Part shown: piece after piece, positions 9,634 to 63,583 of the stretch | Position numbering within the stretch: the first letter of the stretch is position 1 | How the letters are laid out: every line of letters begins with the position of its first letter | Assembly (NCBI GenBank): GCA_964591485.1 | Contig: CAZQDE010000009.1 | Span: 19-64,018 of the forward strand | Source of the DNA: an uncultured Anaerolineaceae bacterium | Lineage (GTDB): Bacteria; Chloroflexota; Anaerolineae; Anaerolineales; E44-bin32 | Length of the DNA stretch: 64,000 nt | Direction of reading: 5' to 3' | The notes under the pieces: model-generated | What the model was told of the DNA's origin: nothing | What the model saw: only the letters and a program-made list of their open reading frames with translations | The model's database searches: none | Position numbers and translations under genes: made by a program

Positions 9634-9642
9634 GGCGATGGG

Positions 9643-9651
9643 ATTCTAGCA
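9643..9651 (-). promoter_or_regulatory. Extended -10 promoter of uvrC (probably leaderless)
   Basis: TGcTAGAAT ends 9 nt before the ATG at 9633; no SD. Confidence 0.55.
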
Positions 9652-9737
9652 TACGCGTCCGACAGCCGGCCTGTATGCCAGGCAATCCAATCCGGGGTTC
9701 CCAGTTTGCGGAAACATGGCAGTATAATCAACCAACT

Positions 9738-11024
9738 ATGCACAGCGCTCTCCGATGTTTCTCGGCCATCTGGATGGCCGTCTTACTGATCACCTCCTGC
9801 TCCCTGCCGGCTCCCGCAAGCCAGTCGGCGGGAACGCCGACGGTCCCCGCCCAACCGCCCACACCCACGCCTACATCACTCCCTCCGCTCGGCCCATTTG
9901 CGAAGGACCTGCTCCTCTGGGTAGCACCTGCCTTCGCGCCCGACCCTGAGACTCCCGCTGGCGCCCTATTGGCGGACCGGCTGAAGGCCTTCGAGGAGCA
10001 AACGCCAGGAGTGAAGATTGAGGTGCGCGTCAAGAGTCGGGAGGGCCGGGGTGGTTTGACCGAATCGGTTCTAACCGCCGCCGTCGCCGCGCCTGAGGCG
10101 CTTCCCGATCTCATCACGCTGGACCCGGAAGGCCTGCATGCCGCGGCGAATCACGGCTTGCTTATCTCGCTGGAGACCTCCATCCCTGCTCCTGAAGCAG
10201 ATGGCTGGTATGAGTACGCGCTCGCATCCACCACAATCGAAGGGGAATACCTCGCCATAACCTTCGCCGGGCAGACTGAGGTCTTTGCCTACCGAAAAGA
10301 TCTATTTGAGGCTCCGCCCCGGCGATGGGAAGATCTGCTTTCGGCCGGCAATGCCTTCGTCATACCGGCAGGTGACCCGCAGGCACGTTTCACCCTGGCT
10401 CAATACCTGGCACTCGGCGGCAAGCTCACAGATGAGGCTGGCGAACCCATGCTACAGCCGGACACTTTGGCCAAGGTGCTCGATTTCTATCGCACCTCGC
10501 TCGATGCCGGCCTGCTCCCGATTACCGTCGAAAGGTGGTCAAGTCCCCAGCAGACTTGGGAAGAATTGCTGGCAAATCGCACCACCGCTGCCGTGGCCCC
10601 CCTCGAGAGTTTCCTCCAGGCCCATGATCCTGCGCGACACGCCGCCACGGCCTGGCCTGCCGGATCTGAGAATCCCATCTCCCTCGCCGAACCATGGTCA
10701 TGGTCGATCTTGAGCATGTCACCAGAGAAGGAAGTCCTCAGCGGCCAGTTGCTGGAATGGCTGATGGATCCGGCCTTTCTCGGCCCATGGACCCACGCCC
10801 TGGGGATGCTTCCGCCCAATAGCGCAACCTTGGCGGCTTGGCCCGAAGGGCCCGCATTGGCCTTAACCAGCGGACTGGTAACTGCTGCGCGCGTCATGCC
10901 CAGGCTGGATGTGCGCTCAACCGTCGGACCTACCCTTCAAGCCGCCATCTCGGCCGTGCTTAACGGGTCGAACACACCAGCTGGCGCAGCACAGCAGGCT
11001 GCAGATAGCCTGCAATTGCCCTAG
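9738..11024 (+). CDS. Extracellular solute-binding lipoprotein (sugar-binding family 1-like)
   Basis: Lipobox LLITSC, Pro/Thr linker, and binding-protein-like PDLITLD, VFAYRKDL and WEDL. TATAAT at 9723-9728 precedes the ATG. Confidence 0.75.
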   Translation: MHSALRCFSAIWMAVLLITSCSLPAPASQSAGTPTVPAQPPTPTPTSLPPLGPFAKDLLLWVAPAFAPDPETPAGALLADRLKAFEEQTPGVKIEVRVKSREGRGGLTESVLTAAVAAPEALPDLITLDPEGLHAAANHGLLISLETSIPAPEADGWYEYALASTTIEGEYLAITFAGQTEVFAYRKDLFEAPPRRWEDLLSAGNAFVIPAGDPQARFTLAQYLALGGKLTDEAGEPMLQPDTLAKVLDFYRTSLDAGLLPITVERWSSPQQTWEELLANRTTAAVAPLESFLQAHDPARHAATAWPAGSENPISLAEPWSWSILSMSPEKEVLSGQLLEWLMDPAFLGPWTHALGMLPPNSATLAAWPEGPALALTSGLVTAARVMPRLDVRSTVGPTLQAAISAVLNGSNTPAGAAQQAADSLQLP

Positions 11025-37808: not shown

Positions 37809-39206
37809 TCAGATGTGAATGGCATGCCCCTCGGCGGCGTGCGCCGCCTCCATCAGCACTTCACTCAGGGTAGGGTGTGCATGGACGTTGCGGGCGATCT
37901 CCGTCGGGGTCAGCTCCATCATCTGTGCCAGCGTGAGCTCGGGAAGCAATTCGGTGACTTCCGGCCCAACAAGGTGCGCGCCCAGGATTTCGCCATGTTT
38001 GGCGTCGGTGATGAGCTTGACCCATCCCGCGTAGTCCCCCAGGCCCAGCGCCTTGCCATTTGCCTGGAAGGGGAAGCGGCCAACCTTGACCTCGTAACCC
38101 CGCTCCCGTGCCTGTGCTTCGGTTAATCCGAAGGAGGCCACCTGCGGCTGCGAGTAGGTCGCCCGCGGCATCATCTCATAATCCAAGGTGATGGTCTCCA
38201 CGCCGCCAATGTTCTCGGCGCAGATGATGCCCATCGCCGAGGCCACGTGCGCAAGCATGAGCTTGCCGGTTACATCCCCGATCGCCCAGATGCCGGGAAC
38301 ATTGGTCGCCATACGCTCATCGATCTCCACGAACCCCCGCTCATCCAGCTTGACCCCAGTGACGTCCAGCCCCAAATCCTGCGTGTTGGGCTTGAACCCG
38401 ATCGCCACCAGCGCCTGTTCGGCCTCCAGTGTGTCCTCGCCACTCTCTCCGGCAATCTTGACCTTGACCTTTGTCTTGAGGCTCTCAATCGCCTCCACTT
38501 TGGTCCCCGTCAGAAGGCGCACGCCGCGCCTCTTGAAGGCCTTGGCGAGCTCGTTGCTGACTTCTTCATCCTCAAGCGGGGCGATGCGTGGCAGCATCTC
38601 AACAACTGTGACCTCAGAGCCATATGCATTCCAGACCGTGGCAAATTCCAGGCCGATGGGTCCGGCCCCGATGATGACCGCCGATTTCGGCAATCGCTCC
38701 TGTAGAATGGCCTCCAAATAGGTCAGTACCCGCTCCCCATCGGGCTTCACGCCGGGGATCATGCTTGCCGAAGCCCCCGTGGCGATCACGATGTTCTCGC
38801 CCCGCAGGATCTGCGGCTCGCCGGATTCCCCCGTCACGGTGAGTTCTTTTGCCCCACTGAATCTCGCCGTTCCCATGAACACTTCGATGGAATTTTTCTT
38901 CATCAGGAACCCCACACCGCGCGTCAGGCGGTTGGAGACCTGCCGGCTTCGCTTAACTGCAGCTGCGTAATCCAGCTTCAGGCCCTCCACCTGAAAGCCG
39001 AATTCCTTCCCGCGCTCTCGCAGCAAGTGCGCCACCTCGGCGTTCCTGAGCAAAGCCTTGGAGGGGATGCACCCTACGTTCAGACAGATTCCTCCCAGAA
39101 ACCGCCTCTCCACAATAGCTGTTTTCAGGCCAAGTTGGGCTGCACGAATGGCGCAAACATAGCCCCCCGGACCCGCGCCTACAACGATGACATCGAAATC
39201 TGCCAT
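37809..39206 (-). CDS. lpdA: Dihydrolipoamide dehydrogenase
   Basis: GAGPGGY, GGICLNVGCIPSK redox disulfide, GAGPIG and HAHPTLSE. Confidence 0.96.
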   Translation of the reverse strand: MADFDVIVVGAGPGGYVCAIRAAQLGLKTAIVERRFLGGICLNVGCIPSKALLRNAEVAHLLRERGKEFGFQVEGLKLDYAAAVKRSRQVSNRLTRGVGFLMKKNSIEVFMGTARFSGAKELTVTGESGEPQILRGENIVIATGASASMIPGVKPDGERVLTYLEAILQERLPKSAVIIGAGPIGLEFATVWNAYGSEVTVVEMLPRIAPLEDEEVSNELAKAFKRRGVRLLTGTKVEAIESLKTKVKVKIAGESGEDTLEAEQALVAIGFKPNTQDLGLDVTGVKLDERGFVEIDERMATNVPGIWAIGDVTGKLMLAHVASAMGIICAENIGGVETITLDYEMMPRATYSQPQVASFGLTEAQARERGYEVKVGRFPFQANGKALGLGDYAGWVKLITDAKHGEILGAHLVGPEVTELLPELTLAQMMELTPTEIARNVHAHPTLSEVLMEAAHAAEGHAIHI

Positions 39207-41411: not shown

Positions 41412-43205
41412 CTAGCGTTTATGCTGCACGTCTGCCTGGATCCGCGCCAGCAGCGACTCCACGCTCATCGGGCCCAGATCCTCGCCCGAGCGGAGCCGCA
41501 CGGCCACCTGGCTGCCTTCGACCTCTCGATCACCCACTACGAGCATATAGGGGACCTTCTGCAATTGCGCGTTGCGAATCTTGGCATTCATGCGGTCGCT
41601 GCTCGCATCCACCTCCACCCGCAATCCCGCCTCGCGAAGCTTCTCGGCCACCCCGTTCGCATACCCGACATGGCGATCGGCGATGGGGATCAAAACGGCC
41701 TGAACCGGTGCCAGCCAGACCGGAAAAGCCCCGGCGTAGTGCTCGATGAGCACGCCCATGAAGCGCTCCATGGAGCCAAGCAGCGCCCGGTGGATCATGT
41801 ACGGACGGTGTTCCTTGCCATCCTCAGCGATGTAGGAGAGATCGAAGCGTTCCGGCAAAACGAAGTCGAACTGGATGGTGGAGAGCTGCCATTCCCGCCC
41901 GAGCGCGTCCCGCACCTTGATGTCGATCTTCGGCCCATAGAAGACGGCCTCGCCTTCATCGATCTTGTATGGCACACCAGCCCGCTCCAAGGCCTGCTGC
42001 AAGGCGTCCGTCGGCGCCACCCAATCCTCGGGCTCTCCAGCCGCCTTCTCGGGGTTACGCGTCGAGAGGTATGCCTGGAAGTCTTCGAAACCAAAGGCTC
42101 GAAGCAGCTTCAAGCTGAAGGCCAGCACGCGGTCGATCTCCTCCGGCATCTGGTCCGGCCGGCAGAACAGGTGGGCGTCGTCTTGCGTAAAACCCCTCAC
42201 ACGCAGCAGCCCGTGCAGCACGCCGCTGCGCTCAAAGCGGTACACCGTCCCCCATTCCGCGAATCGCAACGGCAGGTCGCGGTAGGAGCGCATCCGGCTC
42301 TTATAGATTTGGACGTGGAAAGGGCAATTCATCGGCTTGAGGAAGTACTTCTGCCCCTCGATATCCAGCGGGGAGTACATGCCATCCTGATACCAGTCGA
42401 GATGGCCGCTTGTCTCCCAGAGTTGGGCTTTCCCGATGTGTGGTGAGTAGACGAACTCATATCCGCCGCGTTCATGCTCGGCCCGGCAGAAATCCTCCAC
42501 GATCTTGCGGACCATGCCTCCCTTGGGGCTCCAGAGAATCAATCCCGGCCCCACTTCCTCACTGACGGTGAAGAGGTCCAGCTCGCGGCCCAATTTGCGG
42601 TGATCACGCTTCTGGGCCTCCTCCAGCTTCCAGAGATAGCGCTCGAGCTCTTCCGGCGTCGTCCAGGCGGTACCATAGATGCGCTGCAACATGGGGCGGC
42701 GTTCGTCCCCGCGCCAGTAGGCCCCGGCGACATTCAGCAGCTTGATGGCATCGGGGTTAAGCTGGCGTGTATTCTCCACGTGCGGGCCGCGGCAGAGATC
42801 CACAAACTGATCATGCTTATAGATCGAGAGCTCCGGCGTCTCATCGAGCGGGTTGCCGTGCTCGTCCATCTCACCCCTTTCAAGGTCATCGATGAGTTCC
42901 AGCTTGTAGGGCTGGTCGGCGAACAACCGGCGCGCCTCCTCCGCGGAGAGCACCCTTCGTTCGAAGGGATGGGCCCCGCGGATGATTTCCCGCATGCGTC
43001 TCTCGATCGCCTCCAAATCCTCAGGGGTCAGAGGGCGCGGGAGATCAAAGTCGTAATAGAAGCCATCTTCGATGGCTGGGCCGATGGCGATCTTGGCTTC
43101 GCCCGGGAACATCTCCATCACAGCCTGCGCCATGACATGCGCGGCTGAATGGCGGATGCGGTGCAAATCTTCCTCCTGAGACTCTTCCTTCTTGCCCTTC
43201 GCCAT
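41412..43205 (-). CDS. thrS: Threonine--tRNA ligase (short form lacking N-terminal TGS domain)
   Basis: RHSAAH, DLCRGPH, RDHRKLG, KPMNCPFH, RVRGFTQDD and FYGPKID. Confidence 0.97.
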   Translation of the reverse strand: MAKGKKEESQEEDLHRIRHSAAHVMAQAVMEMFPGEAKIAIGPAIEDGFYYDFDLPRPLTPEDLEAIERRMREIIRGAHPFERRVLSAEEARRLFADQPYKLELIDDLERGEMDEHGNPLDETPELSIYKHDQFVDLCRGPHVENTRQLNPDAIKLLNVAGAYWRGDERRPMLQRIYGTAWTTPEELERYLWKLEEAQKRDHRKLGRELDLFTVSEEVGPGLILWSPKGGMVRKIVEDFCRAEHERGGYEFVYSPHIGKAQLWETSGHLDWYQDGMYSPLDIEGQKYFLKPMNCPFHVQIYKSRMRSYRDLPLRFAEWGTVYRFERSGVLHGLLRVRGFTQDDAHLFCRPDQMPEEIDRVLAFSLKLLRAFGFEDFQAYLSTRNPEKAAGEPEDWVAPTDALQQALERAGVPYKIDEGEAVFYGPKIDIKVRDALGREWQLSTIQFDFVLPERFDLSYIAEDGKEHRPYMIHRALLGSMERFMGVLIEHYAGAFPVWLAPVQAVLIPIADRHVGYANGVAEKLREAGLRVEVDASSDRMNAKIRNAQLQKVPYMLVVGDREVEGSQVAVRLRSGEDLGPMSVESLLARIQADVQHKR

Positions 43206-43501: not shown

Positions 43502-43575
43502 TGGGCGGTATTGGACTCGAACCAACGACCTTTGCGATGTCAACGCAACGCTCTAACCAACTGAGCTAACCGCCC
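43502..43575 (-). tRNA. tRNA-Val(GAC)
   Basis: GGGCGGT/ACCGCCC acceptor stem, D-arm TAGCTCAGTTGGTTAGAGC, anticodon arm TTGCG-TTGACAT-CGCAA, and TTCGAGT T-loop. CCA is not encoded. Confidence 0.96.
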
Positions 43576-45557: not shown

Positions 45558-46976
45558 TCAGCGCTGGAAGATGACATCCGCCGGCATGCCGGGCTTGAGC
45601 TTCCCTTCGGTGCCTTTCAGAGAAAGCGTAATGGCATAGACTGTAGTTTGCCGCTCCTCCTGGGTTTGCACATTGCGCGGCGTGTATTCGGCCTCATCGG
45701 CGATGCGGATCACCTCCGCCTCGAAGGTTTCATCCGGGAAGGAGTCCGCTCTCACTTCCGCTCGGTCCCCAAGATGAACCTTTCCATATTGATTCTCCGG
45801 CAAATACACCGTGATGCGCAGGTCGGTCAGGATTCCCAGGGTGATGCCCACAACCCCCGGCTGGATCACCTCGCCCGGATCCACGGTCCGGACCAAGATG
45901 GTCCCATCGATCGGTGCGCGGATTGTCAACCTCTGGATCTGCTGTTCTATCGCACTCCGAGCCGCTTGAGCCTGCGCCAGATTCTTCTCTGCATAGGCCA
46001 CCTGGGCTTTGGCTTGTGCCAGGGCGGCTTCGGCCTGCCCGACTTGAGCCTCCGCCTGGGCAAGCCCCGCGGCTGCGGCCTGCACGCCAAGGGATTGATC
46101 GCCGGCAAGCAGGGCATAGTAGCCTAGCCGGGCTTCCTGATAGCCATCCCAGGCTGCGGCCACGCGTGCCCGGGCCTCAAGCAGCGCATCCGCCTGCTCC
46201 TCAGTCAGGACCTGTTCGTAGGCCTCCTGAGCCTGCTGAAGCGCCAGCCTGGCGTCCTCGTAGCGCTCCTCGACTTGATCCCGAAGCACACCGGCTTCCA
46301 AGCCCTCAATCGTCCGCCGGCGCATGGCATCCGCCAGCAAGAAGGCCTGGCGCGCCTCTTCGAGCGCCATCTCTCGCGCCAGCGCCTCGGGCCCAAGGGC
46401 TTCAAGATCCTCCTCCAGCGCGCCCTCGGCCGCCTCCAAGGCATCTTTCGCTGCCTGCAGGCCACGTTCGGCGGCTTGGAGCTGCTCCCCCGGCGAGAAA
46501 TACCATGCCGGCAGATCGAACTGCCAGGGCACGGCCTGGTACCAGCGGGCGCGCCGCGAAGGCGCCTCCTCCCCCAGCGCCGCGGCCAGTTGCAGCTCCA
46601 CTTGCAGCGCGGCCGCCTCCCGTCCGGCCTCCGCCGTCTTCATGGCCGCCTCGGCCGCTCCCACCGTGGAGCGGGCTGCCTCCAGGCCCGCGGCGGCTGT
46701 CTCTTCTGCAGCGATCGCCTGCGCCAATTGCGCCTCCAGCGCCGTCCCCTCCAGACGGAAGAGGGCGTCGCCGGCCCGGACAGACTCACCCTCCTCCACG
46801 AAGACCTCCGCCACCAGCCCTGGAAGCTCGGACGATACCGATATCTCCGGGGCTTCGACCACTCCAGAAGCGCTTAGCGCGGGCTGCTTCTCACCACCTA
46901 AGCTCGCGCATGAGGCCAGAGCAGCAGCCATTGCGACCACCCAAAGCCCGCGACACAGCCTCCTCAAAGCAAGCAT
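45558..46976 (-). CDS. HlyD-family efflux adaptor lipoprotein
   Basis: Lipobox LASC, biotinyl-like VEEGESVRAGD, long Ala/Gln coiled coil, IRAPIDG and AEYTPRNVQT. Confidence 0.9.
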   Translation of the reverse strand: MLALRRLCRGLWVVAMAAALASCASLGGEKQPALSASGVVEAPEISVSSELPGLVAEVFVEEGESVRAGDALFRLEGTALEAQLAQAIAAEETAAAGLEAARSTVGAAEAAMKTAEAGREAAALQVELQLAAALGEEAPSRRARWYQAVPWQFDLPAWYFSPGEQLQAAERGLQAAKDALEAAEGALEEDLEALGPEALAREMALEEARQAFLLADAMRRRTIEGLEAGVLRDQVEERYEDARLALQQAQEAYEQVLTEEQADALLEARARVAAAWDGYQEARLGYYALLAGDQSLGVQAAAAGLAQAEAQVGQAEAALAQAKAQVAYAEKNLAQAQAARSAIEQQIQRLTIRAPIDGTILVRTVDPGEVIQPGVVGITLGILTDLRITVYLPENQYGKVHLGDRAEVRADSFPDETFEAEVIRIADEAEYTPRNVQTQEERQTTVYAITLSLKGTEGKLKPGMPADVIFQR

Positions 46977-47000
46977 TCCGACCTCCTAGGCCCATCTCTT

Positions 47001-47960
47001 TTACCGGGATGGCTTCCCGCTGCGCATGCAGGCGATGAAGACATCCTCCAGCGAGGGCTCTATCCTCCGCAAATCGAAGACTTGCAAGCCAGCCGCCGCC
47101 AGCTCGGCGGGTATGGCTTCCGCTCCGGCGGCGTGATCCACCAGCCAGATGTGCAGCAATGCGCCGTAGAGTTCGACGCTCTGGATGCCCAGCCGCTTCA
47201 TCCGCGCCCGCTCGCGCAGGAGCTCGTACGCCCGGGTGCTATCCGAGACAGCCGCCTCGAACACGGCTCCGTGCATCATATCCCTTTTAATCTCCTCCGG
47301 TGAACCCATGGCAATGATTTCCCCACGCTGAAGGAAAGCCAGCCTGTGGCAATGCTCGGCCTCATCCATGTAGTGGGTTGTCACAAATACCGTGACGCCC
47401 CGCTCCACAAGCTCATAGAGCAACTCCCAAAACGCCCGCCGCGAGAGGGGATCGACGCCTGCTGTGGGCTCATCCAGAAAAAGCACCGAGGGGTCATGAA
47501 GCAACGTCGCGCCGAGCGCCAACCGCTGCCGCCACCCCCCGGAGAGATCCCGAGTGATCATGCGCTCGAGGCCCCTCAGGCCCGCCATCTCAATGGCCTG
47601 GCCCATACGTTCCTTTAGCCGCTCGCCACCCAGGCCATAGGCCGTTCCATAGAACCGCAGGTTCTGCTCCACCGTGAGATCCCGGTATAGGCTGAATTGC
47701 TGCGACATATACCCGACCCGCGGGCGGATGGCGGCAGGGTCTTGAACGACCCGAATACCCAACACCTCAACCTCTCCCGATGAGGGCTTCAAGAGCCCCA
47801 GCAGCATACGGATGGTCGTCGTCTTTCCGGAGCCATTGGGGCCCAGGAAGCCGAAGATCTCTCCGCCGCGCACGACGAAACTCACGCCCTTCACGGCCAT
47901 GAAATCACCGAATTGCTTGGCCAACCGCTCGGCTCGAATAGCGATCTCACCCGGGTTCAC
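47001..47960 (-). CDS. ABC-2 efflux ATP-binding protein
   Basis: GPNGSGKTT, LSGGWRQR, LDEPTAGVDP and TTHYMDEAE. Confidence 0.93.
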   Translation of the reverse strand: MNPGEIAIRAERLAKQFGDFMAVKGVSFVVRGGEIFGFLGPNGSGKTTTIRMLLGLLKPSSGEVEVLGIRVVQDPAAIRPRVGYMSQQFSLYRDLTVEQNLRFYGTAYGLGGERLKERMGQAIEMAGLRGLERMITRDLSGGWRQRLALGATLLHDPSVLFLDEPTAGVDPLSRRAFWELLYELVERGVTVFVTTHYMDEAEHCHRLAFLQRGEIIAMGSPEEIKRDMMHGAVFEAAVSDSTRAYELLRERARMKRLGIQSVELYGALLHIWLVDHAAGAEAIPAELAAAGLQVFDLRRIEPSLEDVFIACMRSGKPSR

Positions 47961-47969
47961 ATCGCCCTC

Positions 47970-49103
47970 TCAGTTCAGCGCCCGCCGCACATAGCGCAAC
48001 GAGGCGCCCCCGATGACCAGTCCCAGGCCCACCAGGGCAGCCGCGTGGGGCCAGAGCACATCGATTCCGCTGGCCTTCAGCAAGATGCCGCGCAGGATGG
48101 CCAGCCAATGGTGGGCCGGCACCAGGTTCGCAGCTTTTTGCAGGATCAGGGGCATGGTTTCCACCGGGACGGCATAGCCCGTGAACATGAAATCAGCCAT
48201 GCCAACCATCATAACCAGCAGGAAAGCCTGATGCTGCGAGCGGGCGAAGACCGAGATAGCCAGCCCTTTGCTGAGCTCGACCAAAACATACCCCAGCGCC
48301 AGGATCAGCAGCAGCGCCAAGGACCCACGCAAGGGCACACCGAAGACCATGTTCACCATGCCGAGCATCAGCAGGAAGTCTGTGAAACCAATCAGCATGG
48401 CCGGAATGGCTTTGCCGATGATGATCTCCAGCGAGCTGAAGGGCATCACCAGGAGTTGCTCGAGGGTGCCGAGTTCGCGCTCGCGGGAGATGGACAGAGC
48501 CGCGAATATCAGCACGGTGAATTCAAGCATCAGGCCCAGTTCCGCCGGGGTCGTGTACAAGGCTTCGCTGAGAGATTCGTTAAACCATACCCGCAGGCTG
48601 GGAAAGAAACTCTCCAGCTGCTGGCTGTCCAGGCCCACTCGCTCGACGGCAATGCGATCCCCCCAGGAGCGAGCCACACCTTCGATCGCCCGGCGCGCTG
48701 CCGTTGCAGGAAGGCTCTCGGCCCCGTTCAGCAGCACCGCCACGACGGGTCGGCCGGAAGCACTGCGGACTTGCTCGGCAAATCCTCTGGGAAGGATCAC
48801 GGCGGCGTTGATCTCGCCGCGCAGCAGCGCGGCCTCGATCTCGGCCTGATCGTCGACCCATTCGGGCGCACGGAATGTGCCCGTGTTGCCCAAATCCACC
48901 ACGAAGGCGCGGCTGGCTGCGCTCCTGTCGCCATCAAGCACCATCAGCGGCAGATTCGTCATCGGTCTGGAGGTCGCCCAGCCGACGAGCACCAATTCAA
49001 TTGCGCCGCCCAGCAGCATGAAAGCCGGCAGCCACCAATCCCGGCGCAGGTGGATGAACTCTTTAATAGCAAGCGAAGCAATTCTACGCAGCGCGGATCG
49101 CAT
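47970..49103 (-). CDS. ABC-2 efflux permease (YbhR-like)
   Basis: KEFIHLRRD, WFNESL and RERELGTLEQLLVMP. Confidence 0.9.
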   Translation of the reverse strand: MRSALRRIASLAIKEFIHLRRDWWLPAFMLLGGAIELVLVGWATSRPMTNLPLMVLDGDRSAASRAFVVDLGNTGTFRAPEWVDDQAEIEAALLRGEINAAVILPRGFAEQVRSASGRPVVAVLLNGAESLPATAARRAIEGVARSWGDRIAVERVGLDSQQLESFFPSLRVWFNESLSEALYTTPAELGLMLEFTVLIFAALSISRERELGTLEQLLVMPFSSLEIIIGKAIPAMLIGFTDFLLMLGMVNMVFGVPLRGSLALLLILALGYVLVELSKGLAISVFARSQHQAFLLVMMVGMADFMFTGYAVPVETMPLILQKAANLVPAHHWLAILRGILLKASGIDVLWPHAAALVGLGLVIGGASLRYVRRALN

Positions 49104-50237
49104 TCAGGCCAACCTCTTGCGGAAGAAGAGCGCCGCCACGCCAGTGAAGGCCATGCCCAGGATGATCAACATCACGGCGTAGGGCCATAGGATCTCCAGG
49201 CCCACACCAGTCAGGAACATGCCGCGCGTGATGATGGCGTAATGCGTGCCGGGTAATCCCAGCGCCTCCAGTCTCATCACCTCCGGCATCGCCGCGATGG
49301 GGAAGAAAATGCCGGTCAGGAAGAACCCGGGGAAGAATATTAGCAAGAGGGAAAGCGCAAGCGCCGCGGCCTGGGTGCGCATGAAGACACCGATAATCAC
49401 TCCCATGCTCAGCACTGCAAATAGGAAGAAGATCGAGAGCAAGAAGAAGAGAGCGAAATTGCCATGGAACGGCACGTCGAACCAGGCCCTCGCCAGGACC
49501 GGCATGAAGATCACATTGGCCATGCCCACCAGGATATAGGGGGCCATCTTCCCCAGCAGCAATTCGGCGCGACCAATGGGAGTGGCCATAAGCTGCTCCA
49601 GTGTCCCGTGCTCACGCTCATGCGCCAGGGCCAGCGCGACCGAAAGGGCTGGGAACCCGAGCACCATGGAGATCAGCCCGGGAATAAGGTCTACACGCGG
49701 CTCCAGACCGGGATTGAACCATGCCCTCACCCTGAGGTCCACAGGCTGGAGCGTATCCAGCGGGATGCCCATGGCCTGAAGCTGGGCCGAGAGTTGATCC
49801 CGCAAGAATTGCTCGGCACGCCAGCCGACATGGTCCACTGCGAAGGCACCGCTCTCCGGCTCGGTCCCATCGATGATGATTTGCAGCGGCATGCCCTCCA
49901 GGCTCAGCAGGCGGCGGCTGAAATCAGGAGCCATGACCAAAGCGGCTTTGATCTCACCTCTAACAAGCAGTGCTTCGATCTCCTCCAGCGAGTCCACGTA
50001 GCCGTAGAGGTCCAGATCCTTCCCCGCGGCAATCCCCTGCACGAAAGACCGCGAAATGGAACTGCGATCATGATCGAGCACAGCAAAGGGCACATGCTCA
50101 ATGTCCACGGTGAGGGCATATGCCATCAGCAGCAGCAACAGCGTGGGCGTGAGAAGCACCAGGATGAAGGTCGATCGGTCCCGCAGGATGTGATAGGTTT
50201 CCTTCCGGGCCACAGCCAGGAGATGGCGCCAGGACAT
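49104..50237 (-). CDS. ABC-2 efflux permease (YbhS-like)
   Basis: KETYHILRD, WFNPGL and HEREHGTLEQLMATP. Start set at ATG 50237. Confidence 0.9.
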   Translation of the reverse strand: MSWRHLLAVARKETYHILRDRSTFILVLLTPTLLLLLMAYALTVDIEHVPFAVLDHDRSSISRSFVQGIAAGKDLDLYGYVDSLEEIEALLVRGEIKAALVMAPDFSRRLLSLEGMPLQIIIDGTEPESGAFAVDHVGWRAEQFLRDQLSAQLQAMGIPLDTLQPVDLRVRAWFNPGLEPRVDLIPGLISMVLGFPALSVALALAHEREHGTLEQLMATPIGRAELLLGKMAPYILVGMANVIFMPVLARAWFDVPFHGNFALFFLLSIFFLFAVLSMGVIIGVFMRTQAAALALSLLLIFFPGFFLTGIFFPIAAMPEVMRLEALGLPGTHYAIITRGMFLTGVGLEILWPYAVMLIILGMAFTGVAALFFRKRLA

Positions 50238-50238
50238 G

Positions 50239-51186
50239 TCAGTCGGCCTCCTGGGTATCCATCTGGCGGATGAGGGAGATGAAGGCCTCCTCCATCCGCG
50301 GCGGAGTCCGGCGCAACGATTGAATCCCCACCCCCTCCTCTTCCAAGCGGACTTGAATCTCAGGCAGCCGGACGCCGGCGTCATCGACCACAAGATGCAG
50401 GGCCTCGCCATAGGTCTGCACCTCCAGGACGCCTTCCATCCCGGCCAGCGTCCTGCGGGCCGCCCGCCAATCTTCAGGACGCAGCTCAAGCAGATCGCCC
50501 GGCAATCGTCGCCGCAGCGCCTCGGGAGTGTCGCAGATGATCATGCGCCCCTCGTACATGAGGCCAACTCGCATACAGCGGTCGGCTTCGTCCATATAGG
50601 GCGTGCTCACGACTATCGTCGTGCCCCGCAGGTTCAGATCTCCCAGAATCTCCCAGAATTCGCGCCGCGATACGGGGTCCACACCCGTGGTCGGCTCATC
50701 CAGGAGCAGGACCTCCGGCTCATGGATCAGGGTGCAGGCCAGGGCCAGCTTCTTCTTCATCCCGCCTGATAGATGCACAGCCCGCCGGCCCTCAAAACCC
50801 TCCAGCCCCGCAAACGCCAGCAAATCGGCCGCACGCAGCTCGACCTCCTGTGGGTCCACATCGAAGATTGCGGCGAAGAAGCGCAGGTTCTCCATCACCG
50901 AAAGTTCCCCATACAGACTAAACTCCTGCGCCATGTAACCCACTTTCCGTTTGGCCGCCTCGGCCTGCCTCGAGAGGTCATAGCCTGCAATCCAGGCCTC
51001 GCCCTCCGAAATCGACAGCAGCCCGGCAAAAAGGCGCAGTGTGGTCGTCTTGCCAGCTCCGTCCGGGCCGACCAGGCCGAAAAGTTCACCGCGCCGGATC
51101 TCCAGGTCGAGCCCCTCGACGGCCCAGACCTTTCCGAATCGCCGCCCTAGTCCTTGGCAGCGGATGATGGGATCGGGAATCTCCAT
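50239..51186 (-). CDS. ABC-2 efflux ATP-binding protein
   Basis: GPDGAGKTT, LSGGMKKK, LDEPTTGVDP and STPYMDEA. Confidence 0.93.
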   Translation of the reverse strand: MEIPDPIIRCQGLGRRFGKVWAVEGLDLEIRRGELFGLVGPDGAGKTTTLRLFAGLLSISEGEAWIAGYDLSRQAEAAKRKVGYMAQEFSLYGELSVMENLRFFAAIFDVDPQEVELRAADLLAFAGLEGFEGRRAVHLSGGMKKKLALACTLIHEPEVLLLDEPTTGVDPVSRREFWEILGDLNLRGTTIVVSTPYMDEADRCMRVGLMYEGRMIICDTPEALRRRLPGDLLELRPEDWRAARRTLAGMEGVLEVQTYGEALHLVVDDAGVRLPEIQVRLEEEGVGIQSLRRTPPRMEEAFISLIRQMDTQEAD

Positions 51187-51193
51187 CGACTGG

Positions 51194-51466
51194 CTAGCTG
51201 CTCCGGGCCCGCTTGATGATCCACAGGACCAGCAGCGCACCGATGGCGGGCTCCAAAGCCACGCCCAAATACTTCAGGGTGGTGCTGAATCCCATAGCGG
51301 GGATGACGAACCAATCGATGAGGCCCACTGCGATGGTCGTTGCCACCGCCACGTAGTAATCGCCGGGCACTCCCAGGGGGCGCTCCTCTTTCCAAATGAA
51401 TCCTGCCACGTAGCCCATCAAAAGCCCCACAATAGCCATGGCTACAACCAGAATCAGGATTTCCAT
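51194..51466 (-). CDS. Small membrane protein (GlsB/YeaQ/YmgE-like)
   Basis: 90 aa with three TM helices; good SD. Confidence 0.65.
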   Translation of the reverse strand: MEILILVVAMAIVGLLMGYVAGFIWKEERPLGVPGDYYVAVATTIAVGLIDWFVIPAMGFSTTLKYLGVALEPAIGALLVLWIIKRARSS

Positions 51467-51493: not shown

Positions 51494-52426
51494 TCAGACA
51501 CCGGCGGATTCCGGCAAGGTGAGCTGGTGTGCCGGGTGGAGCGCGCCGCGCTTCAACGCCCTGCGCAGGCGTGCCCTCCAGCCAGGTCCCAGCCTCAAGG
51601 GTTCGGCGGCCAACGCCTGTCGCGCCAATTCGCGCCCCAAGGAAATGAGGCGGTCGGCCTGCCCATAATCCCAGAAGGAAACCTCTATCGGCGCCGGCAG
51701 CTCGATCACCCGTAACGCCGCCCCCAGCCGACGCGCCCAGCATTCCTCATACGCCCGTTGCGCTTCGACCATCAGCGAGAGTGCATAGCCACTGATGCCC
51801 AGAATCCCCTTGGCCGTGGCATTCGACCCCATGGAGAAGCCCACATTCAGGCCCACGATGCGTGTGGCGCCCCGCTCGATGGCCGCGGTCAGCGGCAGCT
51901 TGGCAAAGACGCCACCATCCAAATAGCGCTCGTCACCAACAGGCCAGGGCGGAAAATAGGGAGGCACCGCCGTGCTCGCCATGGCACCATCCAGGAGACG
52001 GTCCTGGGGATCATCCCCGAAGACCCGCATCTTGCCGCTGCGCATCCCCACCGCCACAGCGTAGGCCCGGATGCCTGTCTTGGCCGTCAATTCCCCGAAA
52101 GTGTCCATCCCGCGTGGCAGGTTCTCGCGCAGGAAAGCCGCCAGTGCTTCGCTGGCCAGAAGACCGTCCTTGCCGCTCACGATCCTGCGCAGGGCGACGA
52201 AAGGCTTGGGAACACCCACCTGATCCGGCCCGGCTCGCCGCCAGGTGTCCTGCAACTCCTGGACACCCTCCAGGCTCGGCCGGGCGCCCAGATAGATGGC
52301 ATTCAACGCCCCCGCCGAGGAACCCACAACCATCCGGGGCATCAGGCCCTGTTCGAGCAAGACCTCGAGCGCCCCGGCTTGCATGGCGCCAAAATTGGCC
52401 GCACCGCTCATGACGAGTGCCAGCAT
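51494..52426 (-). CDS. Patatin-like phospholipase
   Basis: SGAANFGAMQAG, GSSAG nucleophile elbow and YLDGG. ATG overlaps the upstream TGA. Confidence 0.9.
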   Translation of the reverse strand: MLALVMSGAANFGAMQAGALEVLLEQGLMPRMVVGSSAGALNAIYLGARPSLEGVQELQDTWRRAGPDQVGVPKPFVALRRIVSGKDGLLASEALAAFLRENLPRGMDTFGELTAKTGIRAYAVAVGMRSGKMRVFGDDPQDRLLDGAMASTAVPPYFPPWPVGDERYLDGGVFAKLPLTAAIERGATRIVGLNVGFSMGSNATAKGILGISGYALSLMVEAQRAYEECWARRLGAALRVIELPAPIEVSFWDYGQADRLISLGRELARQALAAEPLRLGPGWRARLRRALKRGALHPAHQLTLPESAGV

Positions 52427-52959
52427 CAGACCCTCCCCCTCCTCTCCGAAGGACTCGGATTCGTAACCGCGCCCCTCCAAGCCACTGGGCGCAGCTCCAC
52501 TACAGGGATGTAAGCGGCCAGCGCCCGGTAGGCCGCCTCGGAGGGCTCCATCTCGAACCCCATAAACGAAGCAAGAGCTCGCAGCGCAGCGGGGTACTTG
52601 CGCCCGTATTCTGCGAAGATCTCCCCAGCCCGCGCCTCGGGCAGCGGCTCGGCCTGAACCCTCCACCTCCGGTTCCCCACCTGAATCCAGGCTTCCGGTT
52701 GCGCCCGAATATTCCTGAACCAATCGGCCTTGGGTCCCCAAGCTGAAGCCACATAGTATATCCCACGCTCCGGATCGTGGCTGACCACTTCGAGCACGGT
52801 CCTGCGCGTCAGTCCGCTCCGCCGGCCGCGATGCTCCAACATCAAGAAGCGTGAACCCAGGAGCCAGCCCAACCGCGCCCTGTAGAGTGCGACCGGCAAG
52901 CGCGCCAGCCAGCGCATCCACCCCCGCAGCGGCCTGGGCTCCCGTTTGCGTCGCAACAT
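52426..52959 (-). CDS. Deazaflavin-dependent nitroreductase family (DDN-like) oxidoreductase
   Basis: LEHRGRRSG, VASAWG and ADWFRNIRAQP. Confidence 0.85.
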   Translation of the reverse strand: MLRRKREPRPLRGWMRWLARLPVALYRARLGWLLGSRFLMLEHRGRRSGLTRRTVLEVVSHDPERGIYYVASAWGPKADWFRNIRAQPEAWIQVGNRRWRVQAEPLPEARAGEIFAEYGRKYPAALRALASFMGFEMEPSEAAYRALAAYIPVVELRPVAWRGAVTNPSPSERRGRV

Positions 52960-52962
52960 GTC

Positions 52963-53214
52963 TCACCTCAATTCGATGGCCCGCTCGGGACACTGCAACA
53001 CGCAAGCACCGCAGGCGATGCAGCCTTCTTCGTTCTGGAAGATCGCCACCCCTTGCACCCGATCAGGAAGCCAGCAGCCCACCGGGCACACCTCATAGCA
53101 TTCCCACACACCCTTGCATCGAGCCGCATCGAAGTGGATGCGTAGGTGGCGCAGTTGTCGAGCCAGGCGCCAGTGCTCCGCCAGAAGCGATCCCAATCCA
53201 GGCGACTCAGCCAT
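52963..53214 (-). CDS. 4Fe-4S dicluster ferredoxin (HgcB-like position)
   Basis: CKGVWECYEVCP and CIACGACVLQCP; 3 bp from the corrinoid gene. Confidence 0.88.
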   Translation of the reverse strand: MAESPGLGSLLAEHWRLARQLRHLRIHFDAARCKGVWECYEVCPVGCWLPDRVQGVAIFQNEEGCIACGACVLQCPERAIELR

Positions 53215-53217
53215 GGC

Positions 53218-54840
53218 TCACCGCCAACCGAACACCCGGGGCACCAGCCAGTAGGCCAGGCCCAGCGCTGCACCTATCACCGCCTCCCAGCCCCAGTTCG
53301 CCTGCTCGCCGCGCATCAGCGGCGACATCCCTTGAAGCTCGGCCGCCACAAACACCGAGAGGCCGGCCAACCCGATGCCCCGCGCAAAGATGCTGGACGC
53401 CGGAGCCGGATCCACGAGCCAGGTGTATAGACCCAGCCCAAGCAGGCTGATCACAGCCAGCGGCAGGCTCTTCGCCAGTCCATCGCGCCCAGGCAGCCAC
53501 GGCATGGCTATGGCGTAGAAGGTCGAGAGCCCCACCAGGCTGAGCAGGACCGGCCGAAAGAGCAAGGGCCAGAAGACGGCAACCGGCAACAGGATGAGCA
53601 AGCCGTAGAAACCTAGCGTCACGGCCATCATCTCAAGGCGGTCGCGCATCGGGAAGCGGACCCAGCGCATGCTGTCCGTTTTTTGCAATTCTGCCCGCAG
53701 ATAGGCGGGGATATCAGCCGCGCGCACCGGCCCCCAATGCACTTCCCATCCTGTCTCCCGCCGGATCTTCCAGCCGTCGACGCCGTTGGCGCAAAGCTGG
53801 GGCAGGATCAGGCACTTCCGCCGCAAGTAGCTCTCCAGCCCACTGGCATGGATTGCTCCGATCACCCGCTCCGCCGTGAGGAAGCCCCCGCCGGCTGCGC
53901 ACCATACGTTGATGCCGCTCGAGTTCACCACCAGGACCCAGGCGTCCACCCGCCCATCCAGCGGCGCAATCAGACGCCTGACGGTGAGATCGAAGTTTCC
54001 CGTTGCCAGCACGGGCGACTCCGGCCCGGGGTTCCCGAGCCTGTAGAGGCCGGGCTCGACCTTAGGATAAGGCGGCAAGATGCGCAGAAAGAGACCCCAT
54101 AGATCGAGCGCCAGCGTGCGTAGATCCACCCGATGCTGGAGCCGACCCAGCACGGGCAAGGTTTGGCCCTGTCCCGGCGGCACCTCCTTCGCGTCGGCCA
54201 CCATCATCAGCAGGCTCCCCCAAAGGATGCTCTCGCACCGGTTGACCCGAAATCCCGCCTGGTCGAGCATTCTCTCGAGATCCCGCAACGGATGAGTCGT
54301 GGTCCGAGTAAGGAGCCATGTGAGCACGCATAGAGGGATGCGCAGGAAGAGGTAGAGAACCGCGGCTACGGGCTGGCGAGGGCGGACCTCGTCGACCAGG
54401 ATCAACCGGCCATCCGGCGCGAGGATCCGCTGTATCTGTCGCAGCACTTGGAGCCGGGCTTGACCCGGCAATTCGCTGAGGAGCAGGCTGGCCACAACGG
54501 TTTCGAAACTTTCGGGCTCAAAGCGCTCTTCGAGCATCGCCGCATCGCTGCACACCCAGCGGACGCGGTCCGCGAATCCAGCCTCCTCGAGGCACCGTTT
54601 CGCTTCGGCGAGCATCGGCGCGGATACATCCAGCGCGGTTACCGCCGCGCCCCTCGCCGCCATCTGCAAGACTAGATCGCCGGTTCCGCAGCCAAGATCC
54701 AGCACCCTTTCTCCCGGCTGGATCCATCTCTCCGCGATCTTCGTATGCAGCCGCGCCAGGCGCCCTAAGGTGAGCAGCCGGATACCACGGGCATAGTCCC
54801 TGGGCCGCGTTTCGAGCCATTTCATAAATACCGTGGCCAT
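53218..54840 (-). CDS. Class I SAM methyltransferase fused to an HgcA-like (CdhD-type) corrinoid domain and membrane domain
   Basis: VLDLGCGTGD, then PGLYRLGNPGPESPVLATGN, GINVWCAAGG, LILPQL, WGPVRAADIPAYL, and 4-5 C-terminal TM helices. Confidence 0.85.
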   Translation of the reverse strand: MATVFMKWLETRPRDYARGIRLLTLGRLARLHTKIAERWIQPGERVLDLGCGTGDLVLQMAARGAAVTALDVSAPMLAEAKRCLEEAGFADRVRWVCSDAAMLEERFEPESFETVVASLLLSELPGQARLQVLRQIQRILAPDGRLILVDEVRPRQPVAAVLYLFLRIPLCVLTWLLTRTTTHPLRDLERMLDQAGFRVNRCESILWGSLLMMVADAKEVPPGQGQTLPVLGRLQHRVDLRTLALDLWGLFLRILPPYPKVEPGLYRLGNPGPESPVLATGNFDLTVRRLIAPLDGRVDAWVLVVNSSGINVWCAAGGGFLTAERVIGAIHASGLESYLRRKCLILPQLCANGVDGWKIRRETGWEVHWGPVRAADIPAYLRAELQKTDSMRWVRFPMRDRLEMMAVTLGFYGLLILLPVAVFWPLLFRPVLLSLVGLSTFYAIAMPWLPGRDGLAKSLPLAVISLLGLGLYTWLVDPAPASSIFARGIGLAGLSVFVAAELQGMSPLMRGEQANWGWEAVIGAALGLAYWLVPRVFGWR

Positions 54841-55446
54841 CTAACCCTCGCGCCTCCGCACACCTTCATAGAAGAGATTCCAGGCGGCATGCTCCATGCG
54901 GTCCCAGTCCACGCCGCTAGGGTCGATGATCCAAAAGAGGGCGATCCCTTCGATCAGGCCGATGGCGGCCAGGGCAAATTCCTCCGGCTCAAGGGGTTTG
55001 AATTCGCCGGCCTGGATGCCCTGCCGCAGGAGGTCAGTCAGGATTTGCTGGTACCGCCGATAATAGGCGAGCAACACGCGCCGAACGGCTTGGTTGCGCG
55101 CTGCTAATGCGAAGAACTCATAGCCCAGTGGCAGAATGCGTTCGAAACGACGGATTTCCTGCACGCTGGCCTGCATGATGGATTGGATACGTTCGGCCGC
55201 CGATCCCTCGCCTTCCAGCAGGTGCTCAGCGGTTCGCATGGGCATGGCGAAGATCCGTTGGAGCAAGGCATGGATAAGCTCTTCCTTGCTGCGGTAGTAC
55301 CAATAGAGGGCCCCTTTCGAGAGGCCCGATTCACTGGCGATGTCGTCCATGCGAGCGCCGTGGAACCCTCGCAAGGCGAAGATCTTTTCGGCCGCGTCGA
55401 GGATCTGGCTGCGGCGCCGCTGCTCGCGGTCTTCCGAAGATGGCAT
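54841..55446 (-). CDS. TetR/AcrR family transcriptional regulator
   Basis: ILDAAEKIFALRGFHGARMDDIASESGLSKGALYWYYRSKEEL helix-turn-helix. Confidence 0.95.
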   Translation of the reverse strand: MPSSEDREQRRRSQILDAAEKIFALRGFHGARMDDIASESGLSKGALYWYYRSKEELIHALLQRIFAMPMRTAEHLLEGEGSAAERIQSIMQASVQEIRRFERILPLGYEFFALAARNQAVRRVLLAYYRRYQQILTDLLRQGIQAGEFKPLEPEEFALAAIGLIEGIALFWIIDPSGVDWDRMEHAAWNLFYEGVRRREG

Positions 55447-62884: not shown

Positions 62885-63583
62885 ATGGCAGGATTGACCG
62901 ACTTATCAGGGGACGCAGCAGCCCAAGGACAGGAGCAGATCGCGCAGGCGCATGCCGCCTGGCAGCAAAGCATGACACGTCGTCTGCAAGAGCTGCGCGA
63001 TGTCCTGAGTCAGCGCGACCCGCATCACGTTGCGGCATGCTCAGGAGCAGAGATCTCCGAAGCCGGCTTGCGGCTGCGCTACTGGAGCAATCCTATCCTT
63101 GTAACCCTTCCAGAATGGCAATTGATCCGTGCCGAGGGCGAGCCATGCCCGACATTCGACGCCGGCATGCTGCTCTATTACCTGAGCACCGCCGACGGCT
63201 CGCCGTTGGCGGATCGGTGGATTGCCTTCCGAGAGTTGCCGGATGGAGGCTTCTACCACCAGGCCTTCCAGGGTTACAGCGGCGATCTCTTAGCGCGGGC
63301 CATCGGGCAACAGCCCGAGGCGCTCGAGGCGGCGGCCCAAGCCCTGGGCGGCATCCGGCTGCCGCATCTGGCCCCTGCCGCCTTCGCCTTCACACCCTTA
63401 CCGCGAGTGCGATTGGCCGCCGTCCTCTGGCCGGGTGATGAAGATTTTCCGGCGCGGGCATCCATCCTCTTCGATGCCGCCGCGAGCCACTACTTGCCCA
63501 CCGATGGGTTGGCGCTGTTGGGTGCAGGCTTGGCCCGCCGTTTGATACGGGCTGTGCCTCCATCGGGCAGCCTAGAGGAATAG
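62885..63583 (+). CDS. DUF3786 domain protein
   Basis: LLYYLSTADG...WIAFRELPDGGFY...F, and LWPGDEDFPARASILFD. Confidence 0.82.
   Translation: MAGLTDLSGDAAAQGQEQIAQAHAAWQQSMTRRLQELRDVLSQRDPHHVAACSGAEISEAGLRLRYWSNPILVTLPEWQLIRAEGEPCPTFDAGMLLYYLSTADGSPLADRWIAFRELPDGGFYHQAFQGYSGDLLARAIGQQPEALEAAAQALGGIRLPHLAPAAFAFTPLPRVRLAAVLWPGDEDFPARASILFDAAASHYLPTDGLALLGAGLARRLIRAVPPSGSLEE

Follow-up and report, generated by a model that had tools for sequence, protein, structure and literature searches.

A CpaM-type methyltransferase fused to an HgcA-like corrinoid membrane protein forms a conserved gene pair with an HgcB-like ferredoxin in uncultured Anaerolineae

In the mercury methylase HgcAB, electrons from the ferredoxin clusters bring cobalamin to the Co(I) state, which S-adenosylmethionine (SAM) then methylates (Zheng et al. 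2024, PMC11588087); a thiolate ligates the resulting CH3-Co(III), and the methyl group departs as the equivalent of a radical or carbanion (PMC11588087). Hg methylation depends on Cys73 of HgcB and on its C-terminal cysteines (PMC7305189, PMC11588087). The HgcAB-like paralogues, also called 'fused HgcAB', hold a corrinoid membrane domain and a ferredoxin in one polypeptide and are covered by a curated NCBI model (NF043039), as is the methyltransferase CpaM (NF043040) that is encoded upstream of them; no organism with HgcAB-like paralogues that has been tested produced methylmercury (MeHg) (PMC4646819, PMC10087281). Here we describe a two-gene locus in a stretch of 64,000 nucleotides, referred to as the window, from contig CAZQDE010000009.1 of an uncultured Anaerolineaceae bacterium. 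In this locus, a CpaM-type methyltransferase is fused to an HgcA-like corrinoid membrane protein, and a gene for an HgcB-like ferredoxin follows.

The fusion gene (53218..54840, minus strand) encodes a product of 540 residues and the ferredoxin gene (52963..53214, minus strand) one of 83 residues, and the junction between them, TGA-gcc-ATG, leaves a gap of 3 nt after the stop codon. An earlier sequence-only reading of this DNA had described a 540-residue open reading frame (ORF) with a class I SAM domain, a corrinoid domain and transmembrane (TM) helices, followed 3 bp later by a ferredoxin; the ORF, the Pfam matches and an AlphaFold2 model with five helices bear out the first part of this description, and the junction bears out the second. 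From the N to the C terminus, the fusion protein comprises a CpaM-type SAM methyltransferase domain (residues 4-216; 54193..54831), a linker between the hidden Markov model (HMM) matches to CpaM and HgcAB_like (residues 217-245; 54106..54192), an HgcA-like corrinoid-binding domain (residues 246-395; 53656..54105) and a five-helix membrane domain (53230..53649), all on the minus strand. The AlphaFold2 model, computed from a family alignment of 58 sequences (mean predicted local distance difference test score, pLDDT, 82.5; predicted template modelling score, pTM, 0.67), folds into a Rossmann methyltransferase, a poorly ordered linker, an alpha/beta corrinoid domain and five long C-terminal helices. 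The linker is variable in sequence within the fusion family, and its pLDDT falls below 50 at residues 221-225.

The methyltransferase domain matches NCBIfam NF043040 (CpaM), whose cutoff is 180, with 268.7 bits and covers positions 3-215 of the 216 in the model, which substantiates a resemblance to CpaM that the sequence-only reading had noted. Class I methyltransferase families of Pfam match residues 41-152 with E-values as low as 1e-20, and Foldseek aligns the N-terminal half with the C-methyltransferases MitM, Coq5 and TleD. The SAM-binding motif I, VLDLGCGTGD (residues 46-55; 54676..54705, minus strand), contains a conserved GCGTG. In fused and standalone CpaM proteins alike, conservation of G50, C51, G52, T53 and G54 is 90% or more, the acidic residue D71 after motif I is also kept, and G50, C51, G52 and D71 are invariant across the fusion family. 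The N-terminal signature of the window domain is FMKWLE..P..Y.RGI..LTLG, and the N-terminal residues M6, L9, E10, P13, Y16, G19 and G26 as well as S122-E123 and D150-E151 are at least 90% conserved in a comparison with 64 standalone CpaM proteins; the signature common to these 64 and to the fused forms consists of FMKxLE..P..YDRGI..TLG, GCGTG, D71, S122-E123, D150-E151 and R167-x-P169. The conserved R167-x-P169 lies within a hydrophobic helix (residues 157-178; 54307-54372; hydropathy 2.09 over the 19 residues 158-176), which is found in standalone and triple-fused CpaM proteins too and whose docking site may be the membrane or the partner's TM domain.

The second domain matches Pfam CdhD (PF03599) at residues 260-380 with 53.1 bits (cutoff 24.8), a match of the kind whose absence would have refuted the corrinoid assignment of the sequence-only reading. 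Only profile positions 267-386 of 387 are covered, and the match to NF003195, at 74 bits, falls short of its cutoff of 306; the B12 domain is the only part present of the full corrinoid iron-sulfur protein (CFeSP) architecture, which comprises a [4Fe-4S] domain, a TIM barrel and a B12 domain. The CFeSP large subunits 2h9a_A and 4c1n_A in the PDB align to residues 259-382 (E=3e-13), and 2h9a, 4c1n and 4djd are the nearest solved structures to this domain. For the C-terminal half, Foldseek matches 9a0b_A, the integrative HgcAB model (Cooper et al. 2020), with 31% identity over 298 columns; this 2020 model is the sole HgcAB entry matched, and no experimental HgcA structure was found in the PDB search. 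The CFeSP large subunit of the Wood-Ljungdahl pathway (AcsC/CdhE, PF03599) shares with the window protein a homologous B12-binding Rossmann-like domain, C-terminal in CFeSP, with base-off cobalamin under a cap helix. In contrast to CFeSP, the window protein lacks the N-terminal [4Fe-4S] and TIM-barrel domains, is membrane-anchored, has a Cys in the cap helix, and has as its partner a SAM methyltransferase rather than a methyl-tetrahydrofolate methyltransferase.

The cap-helix motif NVWCAAGG (residues 311-318; 53887..53910, minus strand) includes Cys314, whose codon, 53899-53901, is the one that the earlier reading had pointed out. Cys314 is invariant in 58/58 members of the fusion family together with N311, W313, G317 and G318, and so are G309, I310, LPQLxAxG, WGP and nearly all of E501-W516. 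The C-terminal helices span residues 398-423, 425-448, 455-475, 481-504 and 516-537 according to AlphaFold2 DSSP assignment and hydropathy. The most conserved part of the membrane domain is the loop ELQGMSPLMRGEQANW between TM4 and TM5 (residues 501-516; 53293..53340, minus strand), which is nearly invariant, specific to the family, and contains two Met and zero Cys. By position it is the equivalent of the HgcA motif NFTGSTxFTS, and its sequence differs systematically among true HgcA, HgcAB-like proteins and the window family. Given a cytoplasmic corrinoid domain and a fifth helix after the loop, the loop would lie at the cytoplasmic face near the cofactor.

The ferredoxin has eight cysteines in total, in CKGVWECYEVCPVGC and CIACGACVLQCP. 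Its last CP is followed by only 7 residues with no further Cys, and a Cys after the last CP is absent in 76 of 79 ferredoxin homologues. On the HgcAB_like model it scores 64.9 bits at positions 287-349, and on the HgcB model 38.9 bits (cutoff 99). Combined with the 248.9 bits of the fusion ORF (residues 246-515, model positions 3-285), the two products amount to about 314 bits and cover the whole of NF043039, whose cutoff of 285 neither ORF alone reaches. Counts for the fusion family were taken over 80 related loci, and in 79 of them the ferredoxin gene lies directly 3' of the fusion gene, typically 2-5 nt after the stop codon; since the two genes are separate in all of these, the split is not a sequencing artefact. 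The first cluster motif (residues 33-48) is non-canonical family-wide, with CxGxWxCxxxCPxGC instead of CxxCxxCxxxCP, and many HgcAB-like fusions have only one canonical cluster motif as well. The 83-residue gene was left uncalled in two of three public gene calls for relatives of the window operon (L270 and L271, positions 9627-9878), and the HgcB-like partner is thus absent from these annotations, between the fusion gene and a DUF385 gene.

On these sequence matches, the window pair is best described as the known CpaM + HgcAB-like module with shifted gene boundaries, and not as the new system that the earlier reading had proposed. The described pair (NF043040/NF043039; for example, Q8U2U9 of Pyrococcus furiosus) contains the identical three modules in identical order, which we denote MT (methyltransferase), A (corrinoid membrane domain) and B (ferredoxin). 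It also shares with the window pair a cap helix NVWCAxGG that lacks Lys, a ferredoxin without extra cysteines, and the CpaM signature residues. The boundaries have moved from MT / A-B to MT-A / B: in the window the methyltransferase is fused in-frame to the corrinoid protein, so that the association of CpaM with an HgcA-type partner is covalent, whereas the ferredoxin, which belongs to the same polypeptide in HgcAB-like proteins, is split off by a stop codon and 3 nt. The window protein further has a fifth C-terminal helix, as does true HgcA, while HgcAB-like proteins run from TM4 and the loop directly into the ferredoxin. The loop ELQGMSPLMRGEQANW and the motif PQLCANG are peculiar to the window family, which forms a distinct clade restricted to Anaerolineae.

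The top 150 representatives show four packagings of HgcA-type domains: A alone, with a separate HgcB (true HgcA); A-B ('fused HgcAB' or HgcAB-like proteins of about 350-380 residues, with 328-417 bits on NF043039); MT-A-B (triple fusions of 580-640 residues, with P0146 and P0151 above the CpaM cutoff as well as the HgcAB-like one); and MT-A (the window type and a few divergent lineages, e.g. P0208, P0242 and P0244). The order MT, A, B is constant in the three packagings that combine these modules, and only the ORF boundaries shift. An HgcAB-like gene was found in at least 592 species. In 80 HgcAB-like loci from many bacterial and archaeal lineages, among them Asgard archaea, Thermococcaceae, Dehalococcoidia, Desulfobacterales, Aminicenantes and Marinimicrobia, cpaM is the immediate upstream neighbour, on the same strand, in 74 and lies nearby in 77. 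The constant order, together with fusion and adjacency, argues by the Rosetta-stone principle that the three modules work together. Four other methyltransferase-HgcA-like fusions of 527-556 residues (P0208, P0242, P0244 and P0150) fall outside the window family and are not clearly HgcAB-like; P0208 passes CpaM at 212 bits, and its 219 bits on the HgcA model exceed its 191 bits on the HgcAB-like one. All four are possible intermediates that stand closer to true HgcA.

A search of 5.8 billion proteins matched more than 1100 clusters, and the best 120 of these are all about 540 residues long, full length and mostly 57-61% identical. Among references with one genome per species, 125 encode a relative and 112 have the exact C-terminal loop motif. 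As the architecture recurs in over 1100 protein clusters and 112-125 genomes that each represent a species, it is far beyond chance, and the MT-A / B arrangement, present in at least 112 Anaerolineae species, is a standard gene pair of uncultured Anaerolineae rather than a rare one. All genomes listed are metagenome-assembled genomes (MAGs) of Chloroflexota (Anaerolineales, Ardenticatenales, Caldilineae, Promineifilaceae) except for one contig binned as Methanosarcinales, and no cultured isolate with the fusion was seen among them. The exceptional contig, JAIWHF010000083.1 (loci L035 and L142 of a 'Methanosarcinales archaeon' MAG), has a coverage of 0.39, an Anaerolineae-type fusion gene and matching TetR and DsbA synteny; it is probably mis-binned and not an archaeal occurrence. 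In public records, relatives of the fusion protein are annotated only as 'methyltransferase domain-containing protein' or 'UbiE'. The exact window protein has no record in the contig index searched, and a relative with 87% identity to it shows an identical operon layout.

The sequence-only reading had proposed for this locus a self-contained SAM-to-cobalamin-to-substrate membrane methylase; a SAM methyltransferase, a Cys-capped corrinoid membrane domain and a dicluster ferredoxin are all present, conserved and linked. From the domain matches and their genomic linkage we consider it rather likely that the products of the two genes form a membrane-bound methyltransferase of three modules (CpaM-HgcA-like plus HgcB-like) that depends on a corrinoid and belongs to the CpaM/HgcAB-like system, and we infer a relay of the methyl group from SAM via Co to an acceptor. 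The 2x[4Fe-4S] ferredoxin would reduce the cobalamin in the HgcA-like domain to Co(I), and the attached class I methyltransferase domain would bind SAM and methylate Co(I) to CH3-Co(III), with Cys314 as the thiolate axial ligand. The methyl group would then leave as a radical or carbanion equivalent for an acceptor bound at the cytoplasmic face of the five-TM domain, beside ELQGMSPLMRGEQANW, where the loop of residues 501-516 would meet the cap helix. Such a cobalamin route would serve an electrophile beyond direct attack by SAM. Candidate acceptors are a metal, a metalloid, or an electron-poor or unactivated carbon of a membrane-associated molecule; the acceptor is probably not Hg(II), judging from the comparison with HgcAB given below.

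A SAM-to-cobalamin-to-substrate logic has been discussed for HgcAB (PMC11588087). TsrM and the class B radical-SAM methylases, as well as the reactivation module of MetH, also pass a methyl group from SAM via CH3-cobalamin to a substrate refractory to SAM, but the resemblance of the window system to them is a functional analogy only. Their folds are unrelated, the window protein has no radical-SAM CxxxCxxC cluster, its predicted SAM site is a class I Rossmann domain, and its catalytic unit would be membrane-embedded.

Several observations weigh against the proposed enzyme. No class I Rossmann methyltransferase is known to methylate a protein-bound corrinoid, and the NCBI model type of CpaM is hypoth_equivalog. 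Purified HgcAB is methylated by SAM without a class I methyltransferase domain (PMC11588087); as HgcAB needs no such domain to use SAM, the fused domain could serve something other than cobalt loading. The neighbourhood points to no acceptor, because only the ferredoxin is universally conserved. The inter-domain confidence of the AlphaFold2 model is moderate (the pTM of 0.67), and its two internal stretches of lowest confidence are the cap helix (residues 312-318) and part of the conserved loop (residues 510-514); both of these segments lie within the most conserved motifs, and they are probably ordered only in the presence of cofactor or substrate. Finally, a literature search returned no publication on CpaM, corrinoid protein-associated methyltransferase or HgcAB-like fusion by name, and the matches for 'CpaM' were unrelated acronyms only.

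In an explanation that we regard as unlikely, the Co(I) chemistry is something other than transfer of a SAM-derived methyl group, such as reductive dehalogenation of halomethanes or use of another donor, and CpaM is only a repair module that re-methylates Co(II). The SAM-dependent reactivation domain of MetH reductively re-methylates oxidised Co(II), and a ferredoxin and a SAM module, both present in the window, are what reductive reactivation requires. The ability of HgcAB to react with SAM in the absence of a methyltransferase domain (PMC11588087) would agree with such a role, as would the dechlorination of CCl4 by heterologously expressed HgcAB, which was reported in a 2026 preprint (10.64898/2026.04.26.720869). 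However, the dehalogenation rests on this single preprint and concerns true HgcAB, no second methyl-donor-binding protein (e.g. a TIM-barrel methyltransferase) is conserved nearby, and the 1:1 covalent or adjacent pairing in nearly every locus better fits a stoichiometric catalytic partner, as CpaM would be in the proposed relay.

Still less probable is that the genes are a divergent hgcAB pair and the product a genuine mercury methylase, that is, an HgcA with an acquired SAM-loading domain. Features shared with HgcA/HgcB are the CFeSP-derived corrinoid domain with its cap-helix Cys, the five TM helices with a terminal hydrophobic segment like that of true HgcA, a separate dicluster ferredoxin gene immediately downstream, the shared motifs GNFxLTV, GINVWCAAG, LILPQL, WGPVRAxDIPAYL and PWLPGR, and SAM as the probable methyl source, which is the donor of HgcAB (PMC11588087). 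However, the fusion protein scores 170.4 bits on NCBIfam HgcA (NF040863), below the cutoff of 275 and the 411-421 bits of true HgcA representatives. A home-built HgcA HMM, made from 14 true HgcA representatives, gives 318-469 bits for 13 held-out HgcA sequences, 197 for the window protein, 183-219 for its family and 141-192 for HgcAB-like fusions; the window family thus scores somewhat above the HgcAB-like fusions on this model and below every held-out HgcA.

The same separation is seen in the motifs. In an alignment with representatives drawn from a library of 1.84 billion proteins, true HgcA reads DTxGxNVWCAAGKGTFGT, LILPQLGAPGV and, before the last helix, (M/L)NFTGSTxFTS, whereas the window family reads NVWCAAGGGxxTAE, LILPQLCANGVDG and ELQGMSPLMRGEQANW. 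The substitutions reported by the sequence-only reading (NVWCAAGG for NVWCAAGK, PQLCANG for PQLGAPG, ELQGMSPL for the signature NFTGxT..TS) are all visible in it. The cap helix departs from the pattern N(V/I)WC(A/S)(A/G/S)GK in having Gly318, invariant in the family, where true HgcA has Lys. Capo et al. 2022 list six cap-helix motifs of high stringency, all with a final Lys (PMC10087281), and because of this replacement none of the six is matched. In place of the HgcA loop (M/L)NFTGS(T/S)x(F/Y)TS stands ELQGMSPLMRGEQANW, and the ferredoxin has neither the equivalent of Cys73 nor any C-terminal Cys, of which HgcB has at least one and which Hg methylation requires (PMC7305189, PMC11588087). The fused class I methyltransferase is a further difference from HgcA.

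A neighbour-joining tree of 107 near-full-length representatives (258 columns; a distance method, without a CFeSP outgroup) separates true HgcA with 87/100 bootstraps and the window family, outside the HgcA clade, with 96/100. A second tree, restricted to the corrinoid domain (141 columns, 125 sequences including fragments), had almost no bootstrap support and was set aside. An apparent placement of P0208 and P0244 beside true HgcA was therefore not relied on, and conclusions were drawn only from the two splits on 258 columns. As the corrinoid-domain tree is unresolved, we claim no sister group for the window family. The suggestion that the fusion is an evolutionary link to HgcA holds only weakly: among the HgcAB-like paralogues the family stands as a clade apart, although it shares with HgcA the fifth TM helix and a separate ferredoxin.

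Judged by its sequence, the window protein is not canonical HgcA, and the system is probably not a mercury methylase. The absence of Cys from the ferredoxin tail and from the loop, the missing HgcA-specific motifs and the lack of MeHg production in all tested organisms with HgcAB-like paralogues (PMC4646819, PMC10087281) argue against Hg(II) as the native acceptor, even though, as Podar et al. 2015 noted, the failure of P. furiosus to form MeHg is no proof that the fused protein is incapable of it (PMC4646819). The concern that such proteins might be mistaken for HgcA in surveys is supported in that the scores of about 170-200 bits on HgcA models exceed 100 bits, the 'moderate stringency' hgcA cutoff of Capo et al. 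2022 (PMC10087281), with the qualification that these are proxy models and not the Hg-MATE HMM.

An equally improbable role, direct SAM methylation of a small molecule such as a quinone or lipid by a UbiE/MenG-like enzyme, with the corrinoid-ferredoxin part serving separately in redox or sensing, would agree with the UbiE/MenG/Coq5-type C-methyltransferases as best non-CpaM matches, with the hydrophobic helix in the methyltransferase domain and with the deazaflavin-dependent quinone-reductase-family and patatin-like lipase genes downstream in the operon, but UbiE-type models give 65 bits against a cutoff of 158 while CpaM passes its own, CpaM adjoins or is fused to HgcA-like proteins across phyla without DUF385 and patatin neighbours, and DUF385 occurs in only about 34/80 loci.

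The pair is part of a run of five translationally coupled genes with gaps of 0, 3, 3 and -1 nt. A TetR-family regulator gene (54841..55446, minus strand; Pfam TetR_N 66 bits, TetR_C_6 56 bits) abuts the fusion start with its stop codon (TAG-ATG, 0-nt gap). A gene of the deazaflavin-dependent oxidoreductase family (DUF385/F420H2_quin_red; 52426..52959, minus strand; TIGR00026 86 bits, PF04075 48 bits) starts 3 nt after the ferredoxin gene and is translationally coupled, and the start of a patatin-like phospholipase gene (51494..52426, minus strand; PF01734 94.6 bits) overlaps its stop codon (ATGA). Co-directional genes for a 90-residue membrane protein, two ABC ATPases, two ABC-2 permeases and an HlyD/YknX-like membrane-fusion protein follow downstream (45558..51466, minus strand). 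Over the fusion loci, TetR is present in 35, DUF385 in 34 and an ABC ATPase in 35, and the arrangement is kept in one subclade only; TetR is directly upstream of the fusion gene in about 20-27 of the 80. In some relatives the TetR gene directly precedes the ABC exporter instead of the fusion gene, with the patatin gene on its other side.

Neighbour clustering found no universal partner besides the ferredoxin in the fusion family or CpaM in the HgcAB-like loci, where the next most frequent neighbours are TetR (10/80) and an RND-like exporter (8/80). TetR, DUF385, patatin and the ABC-2 exporter, being linked only in the subclade, were therefore set aside as parts of the system. The TetR and exporter neighbours are a weak hint at the handling of a hydrophobic or toxic compound, and the link of the DUF385 gene to the system is uncertain.

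An RNA family scan found no cobalamin riboswitch in the window; its only match is a tRNA gene (43502-43575, minus strand; Rfam RF00005, 71.9 bits), which adjoins a threonyl-tRNA synthetase-like gene (41412-43205). A pyridine-nucleotide disulfide oxidoreductase (37809-39206, minus strand) was considered as MerA and rejected, as its sequence is of the dihydrolipoyl dehydrogenase type and has no C-terminal Cys pair. About 8 kb from the operon, a DUF3786 protein is encoded (62885-63583, plus strand; PF12654, 140 bits). Genes of the DUF3786 family are often found near those of corrinoid or Fe-S methyltransferases; no link to the window operon is established. Owing to the high GC content, the 50-58 kb region contains many long ORFs that are spurious, among them antisense ORFs within the fusion gene. 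One 503-residue ORF (51494-53005, minus strand) is a spurious upstream extension of the patatin gene across the DUF385 gene, the real patatin start being the ATG at 52426.

The module type is thus already known from the curated models of NCBI. The only recent publication found on fused HgcAB is that of Lin et al. 2023, and the mercury papers found describe 'fused HgcAB' without mention of a methyltransferase. What is new here is a large clade, specific to Anaerolineae and with motifs of its own, in which the modules are packaged as MT-A / B, and the explicit evidence from fusion and adjacency that ties a class I SAM methyltransferase to HgcA-type proteins. This association, adjacent in the 74 of 80 paralogue loci or fused, lends independent genomic support to the biochemical result, recent and not expected, that SAM rather than methyl-tetrahydrofolate feeds HgcA-type cobalamin. 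Being abundant in sediment Anaerolineae and scoring about 170-220 bits on HgcA models, proteins of this family could be miscounted as methylators in hgcA surveys based on bit scores only; the missing Lys in NVWCAAGG or the N-terminal methyltransferase domain would provide a simple filter. The pair also offers a compact two-gene construct for finding the native role of HgcA paralogues, which bears on the question of why mercury methylation evolved.

A broader proposal, which we put forward tentatively as possible rather than probable, is that CpaM is the first class I Rossmann methyltransferase acting on a protein-bound Co(I) corrinoid, and that the HgcA superfamily is at its root a SAM-driven, polarity-inverting membrane methylase for an electrophile other than mercury. 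If this were true, the electrophile could be, for example, a different metal or metalloid, or a lipid or quinone carbon that is electron-poor or unactivated, and ELQGMSPLMRGEQANW would indicate a new acceptor site. True HgcAB would in that case be a side branch in which the dedicated loader was lost, and the Anaerolineae fusion would be a natural single-chain version of the ancestral machine.

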